From Ruditapes philippinarum (Eukaryota), in the NCBI RefSeq assembly GCF_026571515.1, contig NW_026851649.1, forward strand, positions 1-64,000: a stretch of 64,000 nt of DNA, read 5' to 3'. Shown piece after piece: positions 3,136 through 56,720 of the stretch. The notes under the pieces are model-generated. The model did no database searches and had not been told where the DNA came from. It saw only the letters and a list, made by a program, of their open reading frames with translations. Position 1 is the stretch's first letter; the number at the start of each line of letters is the position of its first letter. Both the position numbers and the translations under genes were made by a program.

Positions 3136-3578
3136 CAATATGTTAATTTCTATATTTAAGTTTGAAAGATTACAATGTATACCAAAATATAAACAAAGTT
3201 ACTATGATTTATCATAATTATGTTATTACAGCATTCTTACATATAGTTCCCAAAGCAACTTTCAAATATTATTCTTACAAAGTAGGTTATTAAATGGCAT
3301 ATGTTTGAATGATTTGATACACAATAACTTATAAATTTGAGTTTTTTTTTGTTTGTTTGTTTGTTTGTTTTTTTTTCTTCCAGGATTAATTTTCAAACGT
3401 CATTATCAGACCCCTCAGGCAATATGTATATTTAAGTTTTGAAGGGGCCTTATACACATTGCTACATATCTGATCTATTCAGCTACAGGTCTTTTATGTT
3501 GGGTGTATATTTCCATTTTTTCTTATTGTATAGATTTGAAGGGAATGCTTCAATTGTTGAAGATATTACTCAAACAAA

Positions 3579-4481
3579 ATGGTACGAGACAGACTGAAAG
3601 AGTTACAGGAAAAACATGAACAATTTTGCAAGAATGACAACCACCAGACAGAAGGAGGTAAAATTGTCGCACGTTATTCAAACTCTGAAATACAACTTGA
3701 CTTATGTCTCCATAAAGTGACACAAATAAGTAAAAAGATAATCGCAATAACAAATGACGTAGAACATTTAGAGCACCTGCAAAAAGACATCATAGCAAAT
3801 CCATTATTAGATCACAACGAAGTTGTGCGGCTCGAAAGATCGTCTGATGTAATATTCAATACATCGGCTGCGATACAGAAAGAAATAAGTGAATATCGAG
3901 CAGAGGTGGTTCAGATGCAGATGCAAAAGTCTCACGAAATTGTGATTAAGAATCATCTAAACAAATTAGAAAGTGATTTAACAAAAGCGAGAAATGATTT
4001 CAGAGCGGCACAAGTAGATTATATAGAAAAGACCCAAAAATTACATCAGAGGGAGTACGACATAATGACAGGACATGATGATGATCACCATGACGACCAT
4101 GACAAAACCCACTCCCCATTACCTGCAGAGTTCCTAGGTGATTATTTTGTCCAGGCCGAGGATGCAAAAGCAGAACTACGTGAAATCAAGGCTAGAGATA
4201 AGCAGATAAAGAAAGTTGAAGAAAGCGTGATTCAAGTGAATCAACTATTTAAAGAAGTTAATAGTTTATTAAAAGAGCAAGGGGAAAAAATTGATACCAT
4301 AGAGAAACATGTGGAGAACAGTGTGGACTATGTGCAGGAAGCAAATGTTGGATTAAAGCAAGCAAAGAAATACCAGAAAATTACGAGGAAACATAAAATA
4401 TATTGTGTGGGTGTTTTAGTGGCTATATTAGCCGTTACTGTACTTCTTGTTGTCATAGTGATTACTTCTCAAACAGATTAA
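3579..4481 (+). CDS. Syntaxin-1-like Qa-SNARE (t-SNARE), complete and intronless, 300 aa, C-terminal TM anchor
   Basis: The N-terminus MVRDRLKELQ resembles syntaxin-1 MKDRTQELR. The SNARE motif IKARDKQIKKVEESVIQVNQLFKEVNSLLKEQGEKIDTIEKHVENSVDYVQEANVGLKQAKKYQKITRKHKI aligns with syntaxin-1A [72 protein letters not shown]. A hydrophobic tail IYCVGVLVAILAVTVLLVVIVI precedes the stop. The whole protein sits in one ORF. A (GTTT)n run and a TTCTTCCAG acceptor-like site lie upstream (3330-3385), so a 5'UTR intron is possible. Confidence 0.85.
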   Translation: MVRDRLKELQEKHEQFCKNDNHQTEGGKIVARYSNSEIQLDLCLHKVTQISKKIIAITNDVEHLEHLQKDIIANPLLDHNEVVRLERSSDVIFNTSAAIQKEISEYRAEVVQMQMQKSHEIVIKNHLNKLESDLTKARNDFRAAQVDYIEKTQKLHQREYDIMTGHDDDHHDDHDKTHSPLPAEFLGDYFVQAEDAKAELREIKARDKQIKKVEESVIQVNQLFKEVNSLLKEQGEKIDTIEKHVENSVDYVQEANVGLKQAKKYQKITRKHKIYCVGVLVAILAVTVLLVVIVITSQTD

Positions 4482-4639: not shown

Positions 4640-5635
4640 AAAAGTGATCACAGGAAACAGTTTTTATGAACAGACAGACAGACGGACTGAAGGACACTCT
4701 AAGTTAATATTTGAAACATCCCTGTTACCAAAATATAACATTATTAAAAGCAAAATTCTTAAAGAGGAGATAACTCTTGAATTAAAGATGCAATTTCATA
4801 AAAAATTTCAGCTCTTTTTGACTTATCACAAATATTGTTATATTTGCCATGATTTAAGCCTATTTGTTGCCAAGGCAACCAATATTTTTTCAATATAGGA
4901 AGAACAGATAAGACATGCATAATCTCAAGACTGCCATCTACCCATAAGTCAAGTTTCATAAAAATATTTCCAGTACTTTTTGAGTTATCACTGGATTCAG
5001 TTTATGTGTAAAATTTGCCATATTTTCAGTCTATGTGTTGCCATAGCAACCAGAATTTTCAACATAGGAAGAAAAGAAAAAGACGTGCATAATCTCCAGA
5101 CTGCCATCTACCCATGTAAAAAAGTTTCATAAAAATATTTCTATTACTTTTTGCGTTAACTCTGGATCCAGTTTATGTGTAAAATTTGCCATATTTTCAG
5201 TCTATTTGTTGCCATAACAACCAGAATTTTCAACATAGGAAGAAAAGAAAAAGACGTGCATAATCTCCATACTGCCATCTATCTATATATCAAGTTTCAT
5301 AAAAATATTTTCAGTACTTTTCAAGTTATCGCGGGATCCAGTTTTGTGGACGGACGGACTGACGGACAGACAGACAGACAGACGGACATCCGGCCGAAAT
5401 GGAATAAGGGGCCATTTCATTTGTTATTTTCTATTGTTTAATAAAGGGCCAATGGCCCCTTACTCTATTGTTAGGGAATGAACTCTATTGTTAGGGAATG
5501 AACTCTATTGTTCTCTTTTGTTCTGTTTACAGTTAGATTGCCCCCTTTCCTTATTCGGTAATGCGGACAGACAGACGGACGGAGGGTAAACCTTAAGTCC
5601 CCTCCGGTAAACCGGTAGGGGACTAATAAAGTACA
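4640..5635. mobile_element. Family-A satellite-carrying element, copy 2 (direct repeat of 1-915)
   Basis: 4730-5010 aligns base-for-base with 3-290. Three ~170-bp monomers run 4838-5340. A microsatellite at 5340-5390 is interrupted by a 170-bp insert carrying 3x GAATGAACTCTATTGTTAGGG (5466-5530) and resumes at 5565-5585. The terminal hairpin AGTCCCCTCCGGTAAACCGGTAGGGGACT lies at 5596-5624. Confidence 0.6.
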
Positions 5636-6272
5636 AACCAACTTGATTTTGATTTCTTTTTTTAAGGTTAAATCAAGTAATCAATAAATACTATAAATGC
5701 AACCTTATAGAAGATATTATTCGCATTTATCATCAGTTTTCAAGAAAAGTCATATGTAACTTATTAAGTTGAGCTGTTTGGAGGAAATCTTCCATTCTTT
5801 TATTATTTTTTTTTGAAAAATTCTAAAGATAAAACTGTCAAGTTTTAGCAACTAGTTTTAGTTTTTAGCAAAATACAAAGCCTTTATTTAGCCTCTTTAT
5901 CATGCAAAACTAAATTAACAAGAGTCATTTATTTCATTTGACTTATCCCATGCATGAATCATGTTGTTTTTGTTTTTTTTAAGTTAAACACAGTTAACAA
6001 TTAACACCCCTCCAAACAAGGAACATGTGCTTTGAAAATTTAACACTCTTAATAATATATTTGAGCTGCGCCATGACAAAACCAACATAGTGCGTTTGCG
6101 CAGCGCAGTCTGATCAGAATCCATGCTGTTTGCAATCAATTTCTCTACTTGTAATAGGGTTTGTAAGCAAACAGCATGGATCCAGCACAGATGCGCAGGG
6201 TGGTCTGGATCCATGCTGGTTGAAAACGCAATATGTTGGTTTTGTGATGGCGTGGCTCAATTATGTACTCAC

Positions 6273-6413: not shown

Positions 6414-6726
6414 CTGAAAACATAATAACACATATAATCATGAAGATGAATATAAATAAGCTCATTAAAAAGTCTTTATTATCATATTCTAAAATCATGA
6501 AAAGTTTAAATAAATTTTATTCTGTAGTGTTTTTAATCTGCTATAAAAACAAAATATCTATAATGGAATATTTAGCATCAGTCATGTTCTAATTGTAAAA
6601 CAGTTCAAGACCCTTTAGAATCAAATAAATTTTCTACATATAGGTCTTACAAAAATGTTGTTTTATCACTGAAAACAGTAAAATAATGCAACCTGAAGTG
6701 AATGTTTTAACTAATTTTTTGTATAC

Positions 6727-6837
6727 CTCATCTTTATCTTCAACACCTGGTTTCCAGCTTATGTATGGTAAAATGTCCACTGTTTCCTTCTCAATGAGAT
6801 CAGCTATGGAAGGAATTATGGAAACATCATGTTCATC
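6727..6837 (-). CDS. Probable further 3' exon of the same gene
   Basis: Acceptor is TTACTATTTTCAG|GAT and donor is GATGAG|GTATAC. The exon is 111 bp, phase 0. Translation DEHDVSIIPSIADLIEKETVDILPYISWKPGVEDKDE. Confidence 0.45.
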
Positions 6838-7639
6838 CTGAAAATAGTAACCAAGACATTTAATTACCAAGCTTAATTTGTACTATTACTCCAGATACAT
6901 ATAGTAGAGTTCTATATGACTAAAAGCCTTAGATAATAACAGTGTTCCCCTTTAAAAGTTCTGTTAAAGGGATTCCACTGAGGGTGTTTTTTTGACGATA
7001 TTGAAAATCATTTCTCTAGAATCTATTTGATGTAGGTCTATACTAATCAATAGGGATGGCAACGAATACCAAAATCAATACTCGAGTACTCGGTCATTTT
7101 TCCGATCGAGTACTCGGTTACTCGGATGATTTCCAATGATCTCACGATATCAACACCGTCTGCATGCTACTTTCGTTTTCTATTTTAATTCATAGAATTC
7201 GTAACTATAAATAGGACTGCAAGAAATACATATATAAATATAAACATAAGAAATGTCAATGGCAACATTTATTATATACCTTCAAATTTTCTCCCTAAAA
7301 TACAGGATGAACTTGAAGCGCAAATACGCTTCAACGGATAGAAAATTCCGTATTATGGTTAGTGACAAATACGGTACGATATATGGAAGTGCCGGACTAT
7401 TTTTGACGTTGGTTCCGATCTTAGCTGTGTATAAACGTAGCATTTGGAAACGGAAACCAAAATTATAAAAGGCGTGTACGGTTTTGCAAAATTACGTATT
7501 CATCCGTTGGTCATAAATTTATTTCTCGACAGCTACATTTCATTTTCTGAAACTTCTTATAGAAGTGAAGTTTAATGAAAATCATTTATAATTCAAACGA
7601 AAAGGTATATAACAAGAGCTGTCAGAAGGACAGCGCGCT

Positions 7640-8530
7640 CGACTTTTTTAGTGCTTGCCTATAAAACAAAACTTTGACAGTTAAGGGCACACAAGACTTT
7701 AACTAGGAATTTCTAAGTACAAATCAAGAAACATTTTCACAGAGTTATCTTCTCTTGCTTACAGATAGGTCTCATGATGGCACATAAGAACTCCAACTTC
7801 CAAAGTAATATCTCAAATGGTTAAGTCAACAAGTGGACAAGAATGAAAATCTTAACTGAGTTTCTAAGTCAAAAAGGGCCATAATTCAAATAAAATCCTT
7901 AACAGAATTACCTTCTCCTGCCCATGTTTTGGGACCATGATGGTAAACAAGTATTCCAACTTTCAAATTAATATCTCAAACAGTTCAGTCAAAAAGTGGA
8001 CTGGTACTAAAAACTTAACCAAGATTCTAAGTCGATAAAAGGCCTTAATTTTTAAAACAAATCCTTGACAGAGTTACCTTCTCTTGCGTACAGATGGGGG
8101 TAATGATGTGAAATAGCATTAAAAGTTTCAAAGCAATATCTCAAAGGGTTAAGGCAATAAGTGGATTTTACCCATATTCAATGTATTTTCTAAGTCAAAA
8201 AGGGGCATAATTCTGTCAAAAACCTTGACAGAGTTATGTCCTCTTGTCTGTTGATGAAGGTCGTGATGGTAAACAAGTATGGTCAGTTTCAAAGCAATAC
8301 CTCCAATGGTTTTGAAATAAAGTGAGGTGGTACAAAAAACTTAACCAAGCTCAATACACTTTCTAAGTCAAAAAAGGGCCATAATTCTGTCAAAAACCTT
8401 GACAGAGTTATGTACTCTTGTCTGTAGATGGAGGTTATGATGGTGAACAAGTATGGTAAGTTTCAAAGCCATACTTGTAATACTTCTGAAATAAAGTGGG
8501 GTGGTACGAAAAACTTAACCAAGGTGTGAC
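7640..8530. repeat. Internal tandem array of the hAT element, ~166-bp monomer (about 5 copies)
   Basis: Marker CTAAGTC(A/G)A(A/T)AAAGGGCC recurs at about 7865, 8029, 8190 and 8362. Confidence 0.8.
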
Positions 8531-8534
8531 GCCA

Positions 8535-8572
8535 ACGCCGACGCTAACGCCGACGCCGACGCCGGGGCGAGT
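8535..8572. repeat. (GACGCC)n-like hexanucleotide microsatellite
   Basis: GACGCCAACGCCGACGCTAACGCCGACGCCGACGCC read directly. Confidence 0.85.
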
Positions 8573-9461
8573 AGGATAGCTCCCCTTTTCATAGAAAAGT
8601 CGAGCTAATAAAAGGACAAATATGTTGTAGCCTATGCATTTTTCTACTCGCAATGTTGGAAAATTGATATTTCGCTCGACCTTCGGTCTCGTAAGATATC
8701 AATTTTTCCACCACGTTTATACAATTAACAAGTTTCGGCTACAAACTGTCTAATAGTTAAAGGTGGTTAAATATCATAAGAGGCCGAATGACGTAAACGA
8801 CACAGGACTGGGTTCAATCCCATACGCGTGTCAAAATGCTGATCGCATCGTTAAACTTACGATATCATATTCACACCTCTGGAAGGATGTTTTGATTGCA
8901 CTTAACAAGTATTTATACAATAGATACGTGTACATTTCCGAATTTCTGAACTAATCTTTCTAAATGGCAAAAAAAAGTAGAAATTATTAATTTTTTTTTT
9001 CGAGTAATCGAATATCAATTTTGTTAACCGATATTCGGACATTCGATCGAGTACTCGGTTAATCGGTTACTCGTTGCCATCCCTACTAATCAAATAATTT
9101 CTGTGCAAAATTTCAGATCATTCCCTCACTCAGCTTTCCAGAATATATATTCTATTTGTGAAGATTGACCCAAGTTTGAGAACTGTTTCAATGCTTTTCA
9201 CTCAATTTTGGCTATGAATAGCACTAAAATATGATTCCTTGTTTATTTCTGAGTATATTTCTTAATTATCTTTTGCATTTAAGTGCCCAAGCTGATCTAT
9301 GTAAGAAATTCAAACTTTATGTTTTGACATATTTGGGATTCAGTGGAGTTACTTTAAATGTAAAAACGTCAAACAATAATAATCAGAATAATAATCTTAA
9401 TATTTGACAGAGTTCAAAACACATGGTAGTTTAAAGAAATTGTGTTTTCACACAATATTAC

Positions 9462-17924: not shown

Positions 17925-18610
17925 TCATTTACACCATGCCATATAGCTTTACCCCATGCCAAAAAGCTTTATATCATACCATATTTCCCTACACCATTCC
18001 ATATAGCTTTACATTATGCCATACAGCTTTACACTATACCATATTGCTTTACACTATGCCATATAGCTTTACACTATGCCATACAGCTTTACACCATGCC
18101 ATATAGCTTTACACTATGCCATATAGCTTTACCCATACCATGTAGCTTTACACCACGCCATATAGCTTAACACCATGTCATATAGCTTTACTCCATGCCA
18201 TATAGTTTTACTCCATGCCATATAGCTTTACACCATATAGCTTTACTCCATGCCATATAGCTTTACACTATGCCATATAGCTTTACTCCATACCATGTAG
18301 CTTTACACCATGCCATATAGCTTAACACTATGTCATATAGCTTTACTCCATGCCATATAGTTTTACTCCATGCCATATAGCTTCACACAATATAGCTTTA
18401 CTCCATGCCATTGCCATTTAGCTTTATCCCATGCCATACAGTCCATGTCATATTTCTTCATATCATGCCATATTTCTTTATCCCTTGCCATATAACTGTA
18501 CACCATGCCATATAGCTTAATCCCATGCCATATTGCTTTATCCCATGTCATATAGCCCATGCCATATTTCTTAATATCATGCCATATTTCTTTTAACCAT
18601 GCCATGTAAC
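17925..18610. repeat. 21-bp minisatellite, consensus CATGCCATATAGCTTTACAC(C/T), about 32 copies
   Basis: Direct tandem repetition, period 21. The periodicity produces the spurious ORFs 17895-18170, 17912-18106 and 18363-18605. Confidence 0.9.
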
Positions 18611-20501: not shown

Positions 20502-21117
20502 CTGAAATAATTTTGAAATACACATGTATATTATTTGATTTTTGATGGGTTATATGGCCATAAACAAAAGCTGCCATTAAGACAGCATACTTGACTATTC
20601 TCAGCGCTTGATAGTAAAACAAGACCTAAAAAAGAGTCAAAATTTTAACAAAATCCATGTTAAGAGTTATTGGCCTTAATCAGTGGCCTTCTATAATGCT
20701 CTAAAATAAGCGTGCAAGTTTTTAACCCATCTCTTATAGTAGTTTTGGAGATACAAACTTCACCAAAGATGACGCTGCCACTGACCCTGGGATGAATTCA
20801 ATAGCTCTCCCTATTCTCTGAATAATTGAGCTAAAGCATCTAAAGCATCTATTTCTCTATGGCAACTTCTGCAACAAGTGCTTGAGTAAGACAGTGTGCC
20901 AAGTTAAGAGTATGGACCTTGGTCAGTGACCTCCTATTATACTCTCAAATAAGTGAGTGAAGTTTCAACTCATTCCCTTCAATAGTTAAGGAGATACTAA
21001 ATTGCACACAAAAATTAACAAGAGTGTGATGCAGACAACAAGGCCTTGGTGAGTACAATAGCTCTCCCTATTTTTTAAATTTTATCGAGTTAAAAAGAGA
21101 TATGACTGTAAACTTAC

Positions 21118-32657: not shown

Positions 32658-34517
32658 TTAATATTGTTTTTCAGTTCTCCAAAAAAACACTGTTTCTAAA
32701 TTATATGAGAAAACAATATTGATTGATAAAAGAAAAGAATGTAATTTTGACCATAAATTTTGTACAATAGTACATTCCCAAAAAAGATGGTAAAGCGTTT
32801 CTAAATTGCTACCACAAAAATCACATAGATTTGAATTACAAAGGCTATACTTAAATAACATTGTATTAGTTGGAATAAGTCTATGAATAAATTTGTATTG
32901 AAAATTTCTCAATGACACGTCTGTAGTACTTTTAAATGGAACCATATATATTTTTTGCCAATCCAACTCAGTTTCTATTTCTTTTTCCCATTTCTCTTCA
33001 TTTGTATTTTTGAACCTTTCATCATTTTCAAGTTGAATATTATATAAAAGCTTATTTGTAGATTTTGATTTTTTAACTTTATTTAGGAGTGTATCTTGTA
33101 CTTTGTTATAATTTCTTGTAGATTTCAGACTATTAAGATATCCTTTTGGTATATTATTCACAAGCGTGTAATATTTTAAAAACTCAGCATTTTCCATACC
33201 ATAGATATTTTTAAGGTCTTCAAATTTGTAGAGTTCATTTTTCCTATAATCATATAGATGTTCTAAATATAGAATACCTTTTTGATGCCATGTTTTATAG
33301 TACACCAATTTATTATCAATTTTAATATTCGAATTATTCCATATTATTTGTTTAAGGTTATCTTTTTTATTATTGTGTTCTTGTTGAATATGAAACCATG
33401 ACGAAAGCACATTGTTTACAAATGAATTATGAGGAAAAAGCTTATTGATATCTGATTTCGAAAGATTACAGTCAAATATAAGGTCATTTCCATATTGTTT
33501 TATCTTTTGATTTATAAAAAGTTTCCATAATCCTTTATTGTCCTCATTTATATATCGTTTGACCCAATTTGCCTTTACTGCATTTAAAAAATTATTAATA
33601 TCGATCATTTTTAAACCACCATTTTTAACATTAAGTTTTAATGTTTTACGTTTGATTTTTTCTGGCTTGCCATCCCAAAGAAACAAAAACATTGCTTTAA
33701 TTATTTCTTTTATCTTATTACTTGATGGGTTTTCTAAAACTGAAAATGGATACAACAGTTTAGGTAAGGCAAATGTTTTTATTACCATCACTTTACCCAT
33801 AAGGGTCAGTTTTCTGTGTTGCCATTGTTTTAAGCAAATAAAAAAGTTTCTTAGTTTTGGTTCTAAATTTATATCTGTATTTATTTTGTAATTAGACGAG
33901 AAAAGAATACCTAGAGTTTTTGCTGAATCAGATGTCCAATTGAATTTTTTATATTTACAATGTTCTATATCACTTTTTGTGAGCGATCCCACTCGTAGAA
34001 CTGTGGATTTTTTTGTATTAAGTTTTAAACCAGAGATTTTGCTAAATTCCGTTATGACATATACAAGTTTTTCAAAAGACTTCACTGATCCATCATTAAC
34101 AAATGTTGCATCATCTGCAAAAAAGGATTGCTTTATTGTTTTGTTCGCGATTTCTATTCCTTTAATTTCACTATCTTTTTCTATGAAATTTGATAATATT
34201 TCTATACATAAAATAAATAATGAAGATGATAATGGACATCCCTGACGTACTCCCCTTTCTATATTAAAAGACTCTGAAAAATGTCCATTATTGATAACTA
34301 TACTTGATATATCAGTATAAAAGATTTTAACCCATTTTATAAGATCTTTGCCAAAATTAAATTTATTCAGTGTATCAAATATAAATTGATGGCTTAGACT
34401 GTCGAATGCTTTTTCATAATCAGCAAAGAATAATAAACCCGGTTTATTTTCTTTCTGCAGATGTTCAATAATTTCAAAAATCAGCCTTACATTTTCACCA
34501 ATATATCTATTTTTCAT
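32658..34517 (-). CDS. LINE ORF segment 3: reverse transcriptase and C-terminal domain (619 aa open)
   Basis: GENVRLIFEI...YEKAFDSLSHQF...FADDATFVNDGS... Confidence 0.85.
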   Translation of the reverse strand: MKNRYIGENVRLIFEIIEHLQKENKPGLLFFADYEKAFDSLSHQFIFDTLNKFNFGKDLIKWVKIFYTDISSIVINNGHFSESFNIERGVRQGCPLSSSLFILCIEILSNFIEKDSEIKGIEIANKTIKQSFFADDATFVNDGSVKSFEKLVYVITEFSKISGLKLNTKKSTVLRVGSLTKSDIEHCKYKKFNWTSDSAKTLGILFSSNYKINTDINLEPKLRNFFICLKQWQHRKLTLMGKVMVIKTFALPKLLYPFSVLENPSSNKIKEIIKAMFLFLWDGKPEKIKRKTLKLNVKNGGLKMIDINNFLNAVKANWVKRYINEDNKGLWKLFINQKIKQYGNDLIFDCNLSKSDINKLFPHNSFVNNVLSSWFHIQQEHNNKKDNLKQIIWNNSNIKIDNKLVYYKTWHQKGILYLEHLYDYRKNELYKFEDLKNIYGMENAEFLKYYTLVNNIPKGYLNSLKSTRNYNKVQDTLLNKVKKSKSTNKLLYNIQLENDERFKNTNEEKWEKEIETELDWQKIYMVPFKSTTDVSLRNFQYKFIHRLIPTNTMLFKYSLCNSNLCDFCGSNLETLYHLFWECTIVQNLWSKLHSFLLSINIVFSYNLETVFFWRTEKQY

Positions 34518-34530
34518 AAAACCAGTTTGA

Positions 34531-35883
34531 TTAAAACTTATTATAGACGGCAGAACTTTTTTTTATTCTATTTGAAATTGTTTTTGTTGCAAGTTTATAA
34601 TCAACATTGAGCAAGCTTATTGGTCTCCAATTTGAAATATCTGTAAGATCTTTATCCGGTTTAGGAATAAGGGATATTATTCCTTGTCTTTGAAGTGTTG
34701 TTAATTTTGAAGTATCAAAAGAGTAATTAATGGAAGCTAGATAATAGTCTTTTATGCTATTCCAAAATAATTTATAGAATTCAACTGTTAAACCATCAGA
34801 TCCTGGACTTTTATTATTTTTCATTTCTGATAAAGCTATTTTACATTCATATTCATTAATTTTCCCTTCACATGTGATCTTTTCTTCTTCATTTAATAAT
34901 TTTATATCTGTATCAAAAAAATTAATATTTGAGTTTTGAGAAGTTCTATATCTATACAAACATTCATAAAAGGATTTTTCTTCTTTTAATATTTCTTTTA
35001 TTTCTGTTATTTCTTTATTTTCTACTTTTAATTTATGTATAACTTTTTTCTCGGCTTGTCTTTTTTCTAAGTTTGCAAAATATTTACTATTTTTTTCGTT
35101 ATGTTCTACATGAATAGCTCTTGCTCTTAAAATTGAGCCATTTACACGATATTCATAAATTTCATCAAGTTTTTGTTTTTTTAATAAAATTTCATTTTTT
35201 AACTTATTTTCATCTTCACTTTCTTTATAGGAATCAATTGTTAGTATTTTTTCTTCTAATTGTTTTATTTCATCGATCAAATTTAACTCTTGTTCTTTTT
35301 CTTTCTTTTTCTTAAAACTTGCATAACGTATTGTTTCATTTCTTATTGCACCTTTTATTATTTCCCACAAAGTATTTGGATTTGATGTTTTATTTATTTC
35401 TGCTGTTGTTTGAATAATTTCTTTAATTTGACTTTGATAAACTTCATCTAATAATAAAGCACTGTTCATTTTAAAGTATCCAGGTCCTTTTTGCATTGCA
35501 TTATCATTAAATGTCAAAGTAACTAGAGAATGATCTGTTTTAAAGCCATGTGAAATATTACTTTTTGAAATGATGTTTCTAAGCGAATCGGATATAAGAA
35601 AGTAATCAAGTCTACAGTATATGACTGGTTTTCCATTAGAGTGCCATGTAAATTGCCTCTTTTCAGGGTGTTTAAAACGCCAAATGTCAATTAGATTACA
35701 TGTTTCAATTATGTTTTTTATCTTATCTCTACATTTTCTACTTGTATGAAGATTTCCATTCTTTTTATCCAAAGATGTATTAATTACTGTATTGAAATCG
35801 CCACCGATTAAAATGTTCTTGTCGTCATTTTCAAGAATAAACTTTTCAAGTATATCAAAAATATATATGTTATCATCATTTGG
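34531..35883 (-). pseudogene. LINE ORF segment 2: AP-endonuclease C-part, linker and RT N-terminus (same frame as segment 1; ends at homopolymer frameshift)
   Basis: ...GGDFNTVINTSLDKKNGN...YCRLDYFLISDSL...ISNWRPISLLNVDYKLATKTISNRIKK. Confidence 0.75.
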
Positions 35884-41800: not shown

Positions 41801-42889
41801 AACAGCATGCTTAATCTTAAATTTCCTGTTACCATGGCAACGGGGGACATCTCAAAATTGCCAAAATCACTATTTTGCATTGTTTTTTCCATCAAAACTG
41901 TTTTCAAAGTTTTGCAACTTCTCAATGGATTGAGATAGAGTAAAAGGCTTATCAGTGTTGGTGACACGTTACCTTACGATCGACCTAAGGCCATTTTTAG
42001 CCTGTCACATGTCCTAAATTTTCAGGGAAATGAGAGGGGCTGCCGCCCCCTTCAAATCCCCGAAACTGAAGGGGGGTACATTCCCCTTCTGGCAACCCCT
42101 TGATGTACATTTTAAATAGTGGGCGCCGCCGAAAAAGTGATCCCTTTTTTATCAACATTTCTCAAACTAAAAACAGTGTTTGGGGCCTAACTAGAGCATA
42201 TTTACACTGTTTGATTCCTGAAAGGAGGGGGGGGGGGGCGAAAAGTCATCAAAACACGTCTATATGAGATTAAGAGGTTTATTGGTAATGTTGTTTATAT
42301 TCATATAAAAGTATGTTTTCAAATGAATAAAGAATTAAAGTTAAAAAAATACGTAACATTTTTTAAATCAGGTTATACTATTTATTAACATTTTTACTAA
42401 ATACTTTACTTAATCTTAATATATGTAATATTACATGTAGCTTGTCATGTGGTTCAGTACTATCCCTTTACATAAAAAGTCATATGAGTGTGTGGATTAG
42501 TTGGAAATCAGTAACGTATTTATCTGTTTTACAAAGAAAGCGAAATTTGATGAAGATAATGAATTTCGATTATTAAAGGTGTTCATCTAATAAAAAGGGG
42601 CTTGAATGAAGTTTTGGCCTCCATTACTCCGTTATCTCTGTTTAACAAACTCAATGAAACCGAATTTTGCAGCTTTAAACTACTTGCTTTTGCTTTTATT
42701 GCTCTTAAAGGATCTGCCCTTTCCAGAATTTTATTTATATTGGAGTTCTACTATAATAGAGAAAATCAGAATCCCTAAAGAAAGGCCAACACAGCAAAAT
42801 AGAAAATGTTGCAGGTTCGGTTTGATTGAGACTGTACATGCACGGTACTGGAAAGTGCATGTTACCGTCCACGCCCCTAGCACCGGCTT
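38871..42889. mobile_element. 4.0-kb element bounded by ~75-bp terminal inverted repeats, no transposase ORF (non-autonomous DNA transposon candidate)
   Basis: Left end AAGCCGGTGCTAGGGGGCGTGAGGGATGTTGCACTTATTCATTATCCCTCATGTACAGACTCATTCACACCGAG. The reverse complement of 42806-42889 reads AAGCCGGTGCTAGGGGCGTGGACGGTAACATGCACTTTCCAGTACCGTGCATGTACAGTCTCAATCAAACCG. No clear TSD is visible. Confidence 0.5.
42290..42590. repeat. Left unit of a ~1.8-kb tandem segmental duplication (partner at 44078-44385)
   Basis: About 300 bp at ~90% identity (TTGTTTATATTCATATAAAAG(T/C)ATGTTTTCAAATGAATAAAGAATTAAA...GTGTTCA). The downstream motif CTTAAAGGATCT(G/A)CCCT(T/C)TCCAGAATT is also duplicated at 42706 and 44546. 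Confidence 0.8.
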
Positions 42890-44077
42890 TAAAAGAATTC
42901 TACATTTAATAATGGTAATGATGAAATTTAAAATTTAGAAACCTCCGCAGATGTGTACATACGGTGGTTATTATGGAACCTTCAATATGTCACGGTACTG
43001 CAATGTCATGAAAAGCGGCGTATGGCCCCCAAGTAAAGGAATGCGTGTGCTGTAAGCGAGAAATCAATTAGCGGAACTAAATAAAATAAAATTTTGGAAG
43101 GGGATCTGAGGTTATGAAACTTGCATATAACAGACAAGACTTAAAAAGACAAAACCGTCAATTAAAAGACAAAACTAAATTAATTATTCTTTTCTATGTC
43201 ATTTGTTGAGCCTTACGTCTTATGTATTATAATGTAATTTATATTTCACCGGGTATTTTCATTAATATACAAAATTGAAAAAAGGAATCAGAAAGTCTAA
43301 TTTAAAATTTGTATGTGAAATATTGAAACGAAAAGAACGCATTTGTATGTGCCAGGTACCAGTCCGAGTTGCAAACCTCATCAGTCAGTCAATCTCGTCT
43401 GAAAGATATGATCATTTATTTGGACAGCAACATCAATATTTTTCTCCATTTACTGGTCTCATTGGCCTCCCATGCATAACAAAAGTAAACATCACTTAAT
43501 CGACTTACATACATATGTAATATCATTCAATGAAATACTAAATTCAAAATTTATAGGTTACCTTTTGGCAGGTAAAATTCGGGTCGGACCTTGGATCCGT
43601 ATCTACATGACTTTATAAATGCAATTCCATATCACTTTAGTCCCAAATACATTTATGCAGTTCATATGGTATTTTATATTATTTTGTATTATTCTTTATT
43701 TTATTTGAATCTGTATTTTATCTTATTTTGTTTTATTCTTAATTTTATTCCTTATTTTTTTTGAATCTGTATTTATTTATTTTTGACACAGCAATAAAAA
43801 AATGAAGTTAATCTCCTGCCAAAAATAATGGACAAGACAACTGATAAATACGTATTAATGTAAAGCATGCATAAGGAACGGGAAAATATTGTTTAATTAT
43901 TGTTTTATAAAGTTTGCCCTCTCATAATTGTCATTCTTTCTCATATTTTATTTTGGTAGTATCTCAAAAAGCATAATATTTTAGTATTAAACCTGTGTCA
44001 AATGTGTGTGCACTTGAATTTGTAATTGCTTGTTACATAAATTTTATGAGCTCTTATTGTTTTGTTATTTGTTAATG

Positions 44078-52544: not shown

Positions 52545-52792
52545 CCAGACGGCGACAATGCGACAGTGCGAAAGTGCGATGACGACAATACGACAGTGCG
52601 ATGACAATAATACAACATTGCGATGACGACAATACGACATTGCAAAGCCGACAGTGTGATAATGCAATGTCGAACATACGATAGTGCGATAGTACATCGC
52701 ACTGTCGTTTTGTCATCATCGCTCTGTCGTATTGTCGTCATAGCACTGTCGTTTTGTGGTCATCGCAATGTCGAATTGTCGCCCTCTGGACT
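52545..52792. repeat. Palindromic minisatellite / foldback: ~22-bp unit (GACGACAATACGACAGTGCGAT)n on the left arm, reverse-complement units on the right arm
   Basis: CCAGACGGCGACAATGCGACAGTGCGAAAGTGCGATGACGACAATACGACAGTGCGATGAC... mirrors ...GTCATCGCACTGTCGTTTTGTGGTCATCGCAATGTCGAATTGTCGCCCTCTGG. Confidence 0.8.
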
Positions 52793-53949: not shown

Positions 53950-56720
53950 TTTCTTAAACGAGTATGATGTACTGTAGAGAAGCGTTCACCTTTAATGAAA
54001 AATGAAGGAACCGATGGGGATTTAAATATTTTTTTAATGTTTGCTTTAAAGGAACGGAGGGATTCTGATTCACGTATTTTAATTGGAAGTTTATTCCATT
54101 GTTGTAGTGCTGATGGTAAAACGGATTTCGAAAAAATGTCTGTTCTTCTGACAATTGATGCTTAGTCTTTACTGTTTGTTAAAGAATATGGGTTTTCATG
54201 TGCATATTTCACAGATGGGGGAAATAATTGCATTAAATAAAGTGGTACCTAATAAATTGTTTTTGCCTTTGTATATTAAAAATAATTTTTGAATATGTCT
54301 CCCATCTGAAAGCGAAACCCAACCTATTTCTGTTAATAATGTTTGTATAGTAACGGATTTTGTCAATTCTGTAACAACACTGGCAGCTTCATATTGATAT
54401 TTTTCTAATGTTTCTTTCTCGTATTGCGCACAGTTATCACAGACTAACGATGAGTATTCTAAATGTGGACGTAAATATGATACATATATATTATTAAGTG
54501 ATTCTCTTTTAATTTTGAATTTGAGCATTTTCATGGAACCGAGTATTTTAGAGGCTTTAGATACTATGTTAGATATATGTTGATGCCAAGACCAATCTTG
54601 ACTAAATGTGACCCCAAGATGTTTATGATGTTTGACAAAATTGAGTTGTACATTATCAAAAAATAATTGTGTATGATCATATTAAAAAAAAATTAAAAAA
54701 AGATTGCTTCGGTTTTTGCCGAATTGAAATTGACTAACCATTGCTTAGACCATCTTGTTATTGTCGCTAGATCCTTTTTTAACGTTTCTTCCATAAAGGT
54801 TATGTTTTTTGAGGACACAGAAAGAGAACTGTCGTCTGCGAAAAAAAGAGTCTAGTAATACTTAAGAGTGAGTCTGCTATGTCATTGACATATATTAAAA
54901 ATAATAATGGACCAAGTACTGAGCCTTGAGCAACGCCCCCTTCTAAAGAAGAAAATGTCAAAGATACGAAAACTTTTTGGGTTCTGTTATTTAAGTAGTC
55001 TTTTAACCATGTATTTAGTTTCCCTTGTATACCGTATTGCTTTACTTTGAAGATAAGACCAGAATGCCAAACTCTATCGAATGCTTTAGAAATGTCACAA
55101 AAAATAACACAAGTAGATTCTTTGCTGTCAAATGTTTTGCAAATTTGGTTATATATATCAATAAGTTGATACTCTGTAGAATGACCTGGCATAAACCCGG
55201 ATTGATTTTGATATATTAAAGAATTTGTATGGAGATAATTATAGAAATGTTTAAAAATTATGCGTTCCATTATTTCACCAACACAGCTTATTAATGAAAT
55301 TGGTCTATAATTTGATGGTTCGTCTTTATTAACCTTTTTAAAAAGAGGCATAACATGTACCAGTTTCCAACTGCTAGGATAATAACCTTCATTTTACGAA
55401 TAATTAAAAAGTATAGACAGTGGAATAAGTTTCTTTCAACATTTTATGGCTTATTTCGTCTAGTCCAGAAACTTTATTTATAACTAAATTTGTTAATACA
55501 TCTTTTATTTCTTGTTCACAAACATTAAAGTTTTCTAGTCTTGAATTTGCATTAAAACTAAAGTCTTGAAGTTGGGTATGTGAATCATCCAACTGTGAGA
55601 TTGAACTGAAGAAGGAGTTTAAAGTATTGGCTTTGTCTAAGTCTGATAAGGAGAATGTGTCATTATTATTTCTTAAAGGTGGTATAGAATCGTTTTCAGC
55701 TGAATTATTCTATCTAACATTTTAACTTTTTTCCAATATTGTCGAGGGTTTGAGCTATTGAGATCATGCAAAGAAAATTCTTAACTATTGTATAATAACT
55801 CTTTTGCGTTTTTCCGTTTTTCTTCATATTGTTTACTTTGTTTCGAATGTGTTTATATTAAGTCCAATCTGATGTTTTATTACTGTTTATTGCCTTGTGA
55901 AATAATCTGTCTCTCTGCCTTAAGCTTTTACGAATATTTCTGTTAAACCATGGCTTATCTTTTGGCCAAATTAATGCAAAATACGACGGGATGCACTGAT
56001 TAACTAAATCCATGAATTCTGATGTAAAAATATTGCAAGCTTCATTTATATTTTAATTATTAATAAAGGTCCAGTCAGTATCTCTTATTAAATTATTGAG
56101 TTTAACAAAATCTGCTTTTTTATAGTTCCAAATTTTCCTTTTAAATTTGAATCGAAATCAACCTTTAAATAAGCTAATGTTTCATAATGGTCACTTATTT
56201 CATTATCTGTTTCAAAAACTCCTGAATCAAAAACTTGAATATTGTTTGTTAATGCGATAGGCTCGAGAAGAGTTTGCGAATTATGGATTACCCTAGTCGG
56301 GCTATTAATAATATTTTTCATGCTATTTGTCAACAGTGTTTCTTTCAATTTATGATTTTGCATCTTGAGCTGATTTTCATTTACATCTCCTACTAATATT
56401 AAGTGTTGTTTGTGTTCCAGAGCCATTCCTAAGCATGAGTTTAATTTGTCCAAAAAGTCAAATCTATACTGAGGAGGTCTATATAATGACATAATTTAAT
56501 AAGTCTGATTTTTATCTTTTATTTCAACCCAAATAGAATCAGGAACTATATTTTCAAAGGAGACAACGCAATTGGGTCTAAGAAAAGATGAAACGTAAAC
56601 AAGAATCCCTCCCGAGCGACACGACTTATCTTTACGAAACATTAAATTAAAACCCGATAATTGTAATTCTTTATCTTCAATATTAGAATCTAATTTGGTC
56701 TCAGTAAAACATAACACATA
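53950..56720 (-). pseudogene. Degenerate CR1/L2-like LINE copy (APE + RT, multiple frameshifts)
   Basis: Minus-strand ORF fragments are APE at 56717-56088 (LCFTETKLDS..., LILVGDVNEN). RT lies at 55592-54800 (NYRPISLISCVGEIMERII...SKAFDRVWHSGLIFKVKQYGIQGKL...GVAQGSVLGPLLFLIYVND). The RT tail lies at 54534-54196 (RPHLEYSSLVC...LEKYQYEAASVV). Confidence 0.75.

Follow-up and report, generated by a model that had tools for sequence, protein, structure and literature searches.

A tandem-repeat array in a probable Helentron-derived element nested within a hAT-type miniature transposon of the clam Ruditapes philippinarum

Features of the locus and structure of the outer element

The analysed window is a 64,000-nucleotide stretch of Ruditapes philippinarum DNA (contig NW_026851649.1, forward strand). 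It contains an intronless syntaxin-like open reading frame at 3579–4481, the product of which shares 96% identity with a protein of Ruditapes philippinarum and has its next-best named matches in Mercenaria. At 7051–9085 lies a composite transposable element of 2,035 bp, which can be divided into an outer hAT-type miniature element and an inner unit of 996 bp. The left arm of the outer element (7051–7611, plus strand) is 561 bp long, non-coding, and aligns with positions 401–976 of the metagenome contig L004, on which a second copy of the hAT family is located. The right arm (8608–9085, plus strand) has a length of 478 bp and aligns with positions 968–1502 of the same contig. The outer element without the insert (7051–7611 joined to 8608–9085) is 1,039 bp long.

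The outer element is terminated by the inverted repeat TAGGGATGGCAACGA at 7051–7065 on the plus strand and by its complement at 9071–9085 on the minus strand. The two repeats are complementary to each other in 15 of 15 positions, and the similarity extends to approximately 20 bp with one mismatch. Even with up to three mismatches allowed, the 64-kb window has no match to the sequence other than these two. The inverted ends have the YARNG start of the hAT superfamily. They begin with TAGGGATG, eight bases that match one end of the maize Ac element, TAGGGATGAAA. The element is flanked by two identical copies of the 8-bp target-site duplication CTAATCAA, the left at 7043–7050 and the right at 9086–9093; the chance of the same 8-mer standing on both flanks is about 1.5e-5. 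The subterminal palindrome CGAGTACTCGG forms a pair at 7083–7093 and 7107–7117 on the left side and is present once within the right arm, at 9048–9058. These are its only positions in the window, which amount to six hits over both strands, compared with 0.04 expected. The palindromes are putative transposase-binding repeats. The duplication, the 15-bp inverted repeats, and the subterminal palindrome had all been claimed in an earlier note on this DNA, and each is present at 7051–9085 as described there.

None of the nine window ORFs of at least 130 amino acids matches a transposase, and no Rep/helicase is among them. The ORFs of the hAT arms have no match in Pfam, and the arms contain neither a transposase remnant nor coding capacity. 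Searches with Rfam and ARAGORN identified no structured RNA or tRNA-derived part. Exact-protein look-ups of the ORFs at 3579–4481, 7253–7468, 8763–8954, 8435–8653, and 6634–6870, and of the Ruditapes syntaxin P0001, found none of them on record and yielded neither an orthologous locus nor an empty site of the hAT insertion.

Related elements were identified by a metagenome scan with the terminal inverted repeat and the subterminal motif, which returned three contigs carrying related hAT families with unrelated interiors; the same scan gave zero hits in the prokaryote genome collection and zero in the viral collection. One related element, at 745–1552 of contig L003, has its own 8-bp duplication, AAATTTAG. 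Together with CTAATCAA in the window and TTATATAG around the L004 copy, this makes three perfect 8-bp duplications at three independent sites, two of which fit the pattern nTnnnnAn. In each of the four related elements, those on contigs L001 to L004, the GAGTACTCG motifs stay within the subterminal 100 bp. Common ends and a common motif combined with differing interiors are the pattern expected if one shared transposase mobilises different deletion derivatives. There is no long ORF in contigs L001 to L003, and neither an autonomous hAT partner nor the dimerisation domain was found in the window or in the contigs examined.

The assignment of the outer element to the hAT class as a non-autonomous transposon is supported by its sequence features, because it combines 8-bp duplications, TAGGGATG ends, and subterminal GAGTACTCG motifs with a lack of coding capacity. 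The earlier note had proposed the same identity, and the duplications at the three sites, the ends, the non-coding arms, and the second copy bear it out. The window element resembles Ds of the maize Ac/Ds system and animal hAT MITEs in its 8-bp duplication, short inverted ends, repeated subterminal motifs, lack of a transposase, and presence in multiple copies. The subterminal motif of the window element is the 10-bp palindrome CGAGTACTCG, whereas that of Ac consists of hexamers, and, unlike the Ds-type elements compared, the window copy is interrupted by the inner unit. The hAT family with TAGGGATGGCAACGA ends and CGAGTACTCG subterminal palindromes may be uncatalogued.

Inner unit and its tandem array

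Helentrons are a kind of Helitron-like rolling-circle transposon with an endonuclease of their own. Their non-autonomous derivatives are called HINEs, the anatomy of which has been described for Cg_HINE (PMC7492417) and DINE-1/HINE (PMC4067079). HINEs of the present kind have, enclosed by their terminal structures, a microsatellite and a short array of tandem repeats of roughly 160 bp. The inner unit of the window element (7612–8607, minus strand) contains all the published HINE parts in canonical order and, judged by this anatomy, is a HINE. The order on the minus strand is 5′ subTIR, inverted repeat, microsatellite, central repeats, 3′ subTIR, and 3′ stem-loop. The boundaries of the unit follow from this published anatomy and from the absence of the unit from the L004 hAT copy.

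The 5′ subTIR of the inner unit (GCTCGACTTTTC on the minus strand, 8594–8605) begins 2 nt inside the 5′ end. It is followed 3 nt downstream by an inverted repeat complementary to it, GAAAAGGGGAGC on the minus strand (8579–8590). The subTIR and the adjacent inverted repeat are predicted to fold into a hairpin with an energy of −9.7 kcal/mol (z −2.6), and 3 of 200 shuffled sequences were as stable. The microsatellite, a (GGCGTC)n run on the minus strand that reads (GACGCC)n in the plus orientation, occupies positions 8528–8564 directly after the array; it stands between the 5′ flank and the repeats, as in Cg_HINE. The 3′ subTIR (AAAAGTCGAGC on the minus strand, 7637–7647) is complementary to the 5′ subTIR in 11 of 11 positions and is located about 25 nt from the 3′ terminus. 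Read on the plus strand, GCTCGACTTTT (7637–7647) and AAAAGTCGAGC (8595–8605) form an inverted pair that encloses both the array and the microsatellite. The 3′ hairpin, GCTGTC-cttct-GACAGC on the minus strand and GCTGTC-agaag-GACAGC on the plus strand, spans positions 7618–7634 and ends 6 nt before the 3′ terminus; by itself it is energetically unexceptional (z −0.6). The 3′ terminus reads ...CTCTTGT on the minus strand, so that ACAAGAG precedes the hairpin on the plus strand. Written as motifs, the termini are TAGCTCGACTTTTC ... AAAAGTCGAGC ... GCTGTCCTTCTGACAGCTCTTGT. The (GACGCC)n microsatellite, the inverted pair, and the hairpin at 7618–7634 had been left out of the earlier reading of this locus.

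The central tandem repeats of the HINE (7651–8527, minus strand) are built of five monomers of 160–174 bp, the last of which is shortened, and a degenerate partial unit at 7651–7721. Tandem Repeats Finder and a repeat finder placed the monomer starts at 7722, 7885, 8051, 8211, and 8385; successive starts are 163, 166, 160, and 174 bp apart, and the array amounts to approximately 4.9 monomers. The fourth and fifth monomers are 87% identical in the alignment, whereas all other comparisons between monomers give identities of 60–71%. The array is short and diverged, unlike a homogeneous satellite. The earlier note had described about five monomers of a 166-bp satellite; the five units and their approximate length stand, but the label "satellite" is generous, because most of the monomers share so little of their sequence.

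Among the closest described counterparts in layout is Cg_HINE of Crassostrea gigas (Repbase Helitron-N*_CGi). Its left flank has a 5′ subTIR of 11–12 bp, a complementary inverted repeat 1–12 bp away, and a GTCK-type microsatellite; central tandem repeats of approximately 145–180 bp follow, and the right flank contains a 3′ subTIR as well as a palindrome (PMC7492417). The inner unit at 7612–8607 consists of the same modules in the same order. Each integrates at a TT within T-rich sequence, makes no target duplication, and occurs in other transposons. The host of Cg_HINE is an oyster, whereas that of the inner unit is a venerid clam, and the monomers of the inner unit are more diverged from each other (60–87%). 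No match to 7612–8607 was found in the supplementary material of the Cg_HINE paper (PMC7492417).

The DINE-1/HINE elements, non-autonomous Helentrons known from insects and mites (Thomas et al. 2014, PMC4067079), resemble the inner unit in having subTIRs a few nucleotides from the 5′ end, an inverted repeat beside the 5′ subTIR, a microsatellite, repeats in the centre, and a stem-loop on the 3′ side. They share with it the preference for insertion at TT. Their boundaries were confirmed by paralogous empty sites (PMC4067079), as are those of the inner unit. The distance of about 25 nt from the 3′ subTIR to the 3′ terminus in the inner unit differs from the 38–60 nt in mite HINEs (PMC4067079), and there is no sequence similarity between DINE-1/HINE and 7612–8607. 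DTC84 of Donax trunculus and pearl of Crassostrea virginica are like the inner unit in layout: their core repeats number at most five, the array has a microsatellite on one side, and the flanks contain short inverted repeats (PMC3879986). They were initially taken for MITEs that make a putative AA duplication (PMC3879986) and were later re-read as HINEs. Elements that bear tandem repeats have long been known from bivalves such as clams and oysters, as have Helitron-linked satellites. Literature searches for the strings of the terminal inverted repeat, the monomer, and the subTIR returned nothing relevant. Both the hAT and the HINE families are probably new, each within an already known kind.

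Relatives of the inner unit are present elsewhere on L004 and in the window. The region 5099–5683 of L004 contains a HINE 3′ end, ACAAGAGCTGTCAGTAGGACAGCACGCTCAAC, which is 87% identical to window positions 7605–7657. Its monomers, at 5339–5683, are 71–76% identical to those of the window and run to the end of the contig. The distance between this HINE and the hAT copy on L004 is 3.6 kb, and no hAT element surrounds it. The array-bearing unit is, by these comparisons, a mobile family in its own right, separate from the hAT element, because a related 3′ end and related monomers are found on L004 outside hAT sequence. A further diverged HINE 3′ end is located at approximately 20560–20622 of the window. 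The array carriers at 1466 and 26160 of the window have a 3′ end with ACAAGAG and a palindrome, in common with the 7612–8607 unit and the one at L004 5099. They also contain a (GACG/GGAC)n microsatellite, and their 5′ ends read ...GCTA followed by an A-run. By the structure of their carriers, all the tandem arrays in the window travel with putative Helentron-type non-autonomous elements.

Second copy of the hAT family and the insertion junction

Contigs L004 and L005 were found by a protein-space search with the 71-residue product of the left-arm ORF at 7253–7468, which matched two entries of a single JGI metagenome, spuriously annotated as "hypothetical proteins"; the same kind of search with the right-arm ORF gave no match. 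L005 contains an internal fragment of the window hAT family. Positions 401–1502 of L004 form a second full copy of the family, with identical ends, different flanks, and its own perfect duplication, TTATATAG. A chance inverted repeat or an assembly artefact as the source of the window element was ruled out, since this independent copy with its own duplication exists. Once 7612–8607 is taken out of the window element, the two copies agree in 93.4% of aligned columns. The L004 copy contains neither the inner unit nor any tandem repeat. The comparison covers two full copies of the family, that in the window and that on L004, the latter being a metagenome contig that may come from a related species rather than from the same genome. 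Within the window, a search for the ends with up to three mismatches and blastn of 6900–9250 at E<1e-3 detected no other hAT copies, and blastn of the same region at E up to 10 gave just short, chance-level matches.

In the L004 copy, the two arms meet at the very point at which the insert splits the window copy. The uninterrupted sequence on L004 is AAAAGGTATTTAATAAAAGGAAAAATAT (also given as AAAAGGTATTTAATAAAAGG), and the corresponding junction in the window is AAAAGGTATATA, the 996-bp insert, and ATAAAAGGACAAATAT (the right side also given as ATAAAAGG). Excision of 7612–8607 in silico makes the window element colinear with L004, with one substitution, zero duplicated bases, and zero leftover bases. 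The insertion site, read on the strand of the insert, is CCTTTTAT^TATATACC, that is, T^T in a T-rich context without a target-site duplication, defined to ±1 nt owing to a shared AA. Such a site is characteristic of Helentron and HINE insertions (PMC7492417, PMC4067079).

Origin of the array

We propose, with a probability of about 0.88, that the locus consists of two unrelated non-autonomous DNA transposons, one nested in the other: a HINE inside a hAT miniature element. A hAT transposase acting in trans would have moved the miniature element of approximately 1 kb by a cut-and-paste mechanism, producing the CTAATCAA duplication. The enzyme is expected to recognise the TAGGGATGGCAACGA ends together with the CGAGTACTCG palindromes. 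A Helentron Rep/helicase would have copied the 996-bp HINE into T^T in the middle of the hAT element without duplicating the target. The tandem repeats would have arrived ready-made in the HINE, a vector of the class to which the carriers of the other window arrays belong. We attribute the repeats to a Helitron-like vector because the array lies inside a complete HINE that is missing precisely from the L004 copy. Both mobilising enzymes are deduced from the terminal structures of the two elements, because their autonomous hAT and Helentron partners were not found.

The earlier note had regarded the array as the content of the hAT element itself and, with it, the hAT element as a further vector that spreads tandem repeats next to Helitron-like elements. 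Neither claim is supported by the comparison with L004: the array sits in the separately bounded HINE at 7612–8607, which that copy lacks, and its carrier is of the Helentron type, as are the carriers of the other window arrays. The same note had named other copies lacking the array as the finding that would overturn its reading in favour of an expansion in place after insertion. Such a copy is what the comparison yielded, and the fallback explanation proved wrong as well. An expansion in situ was rejected, since the array is enclosed in a complete HINE. That the array is native to the hAT family, or expanded in place after insertion independently of Helitron-like elements, is in keeping with its location between the hAT ends. 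It is nevertheless extremely improbable, as the family member on L004 is without the array to the nucleotide, the full set of HINE terminal structures brackets the array, and related monomers with a matching 3′ end occur outside the hAT element. Subterminal repeats, a hairpin, and a microsatellite in canonical order are not something that expansion in situ would create. Equally improbable is a history in which the HINE was already part of the ancestral hAT family and was then precisely excised or deleted from the L004 copy. Excision of Helitrons has been reported in some systems, and just one copy without the HINE is on hand; however, such a loss would need nucleotide-precise cuts at the two ends of the HINE, with no footprint, and a single insertion event is the simpler account. 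Insertions of HINEs into other transposons are, moreover, already known: Vojvoda Zeljko et al. 2020 reported them for Cg_HINE, mostly into DNA transposons (PMC7492417).

The nested arrangement leaves room for a later step, in which the composite of hAT ends and internal HINE was mobilised as a unit by the hAT transposase, so that the array was moved secondarily. The composite has kept its hAT ends, subterminal motifs, and duplication intact, and its length of 2,035 bp is well inside the size range that hAT transposases move. The present data place the HINE insertion neither before nor after the integration of the hAT element. Against this, there is no second composite in the window, the sole other full member of the family, on L004, is without the HINE, and exact look-ups of the ORFs that span the junctions gave no match; the space searched for a second composite was very small. 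We consider mobilisation of the composite unlikely, although it is clearly less far-fetched than a native array or a precise loss. If it did take place, cut-and-paste transposition would be an occasional second-order vector of Helentron-borne arrays, and a composite subfamily would be present in the clam genome.

The insertion of a HINE into a hAT miniature element, which we favour, removes the apparent second route of satellite dispersal and agrees with existing descriptions in oysters and clams. For the annotation of repeats, it means that the termini of an inner HINE, namely the subTIR pair, the microsatellite, and the 3′ hairpin, should be sought before an array is named the "cargo" of the transposon around it. 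The nesting would be an ordinary transposon-in-transposon event and not a novel mode of spreading satellites.

Orientation of the HINE-like array carriers and a possible nested element

Six carriers of tandem arrays that resemble Helentron-derived non-autonomous elements (HINEs) are located in the window, at positions 1–~912, 1466–~3136, ~4720–5600, 7612–8607, ~20565 onward, and 26160–~27437. All six share one orientation, with the 3′ end to the left and, to the right, the 5′ end together with the microsatellite. Local duplication could account for this, as could a bias towards one orientation inside a gene or intron. The segment 4734–4842 is nearly identical to positions 1–110.

In the HINE-like copy at 4842–5387, an insert of ~175 bp (5388–~5565) divides the (GGAC/GACA)n microsatellite. 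The insert reads CCGGCCGAAATGG...CCTTATTCGGTAATGC and contains a 20-bp repeat in 2.5 copies (5462–5512). Past the insert, the microsatellite and 5′ flank of the HINE-like copy continue from ~5566. The insert may be another small nested element.

Two HINE-like elements flank an intronless syntaxin/SNARE open reading frame of 300 amino acids on the forward strand (3579–4481), which is 96% identical to a "syntaxin-like" protein of Ruditapes philippinarum. This reading frame may represent a retrogene or a lineage-specific paralogue.

Other repeats in the window

A palindromic, foldback-like array occupies positions 52545–52785, where CGACAATACGACAGTGCGATGA, a 22-bp unit repeated ~6 times, gives way without a spacer to ~4 reverse-complement copies; the array is flanked by CCAGACGGCGACAAT and ATTGTCGCCCTCTGG. 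The minisatellite at 17928–18605 is built from ~32 copies of the 20-bp unit TTTACACCATGCCATATAGC, and also shows higher-order periods of 34 and 54 bp. Non-LTR retrotransposon remnants, at 32658–35772 and 54800–56492, are on the reverse strand, and their open reading frames have matches to reverse transcriptase, zf-RVT, and endonuclease domains. An interspersed repeat at 42755–43151 is shared, with 75% identity, with positions 3453–3847 of the metagenome contig L004, and this sequence similarity supports an origin of L004 from a related bivalve genome.

hAT-type relatives on metagenome contigs

An isolated fragment of the hAT-family interior, ~120–150 bp long and 90% identical to window positions 7332–7451, is present at ~920–1062 of contig L005. 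The fragment contains a small hairpin (CCGTATT...AATACGG), and no hAT ends were found nearby. It represents either a decayed copy of the hAT family or sequence of other origin that the family has captured.

Related hAT-type miniature elements are located in contigs L001 (780–~860), L002 (28–~1180), and L003 (745–1552), the last of which has the 8-bp duplication AAATTTAG. The interiors of the three elements are unrelated. Their end TAGGGATGGCAACGAGTACTCG, which is also that of the hAT element in the window, and their clustered GAGTACTCG repeats suggest a hAT lineage that is widespread in marine invertebrates, the transposase of which recognises TAGGGATGGCAACGAGTACTCG ends.
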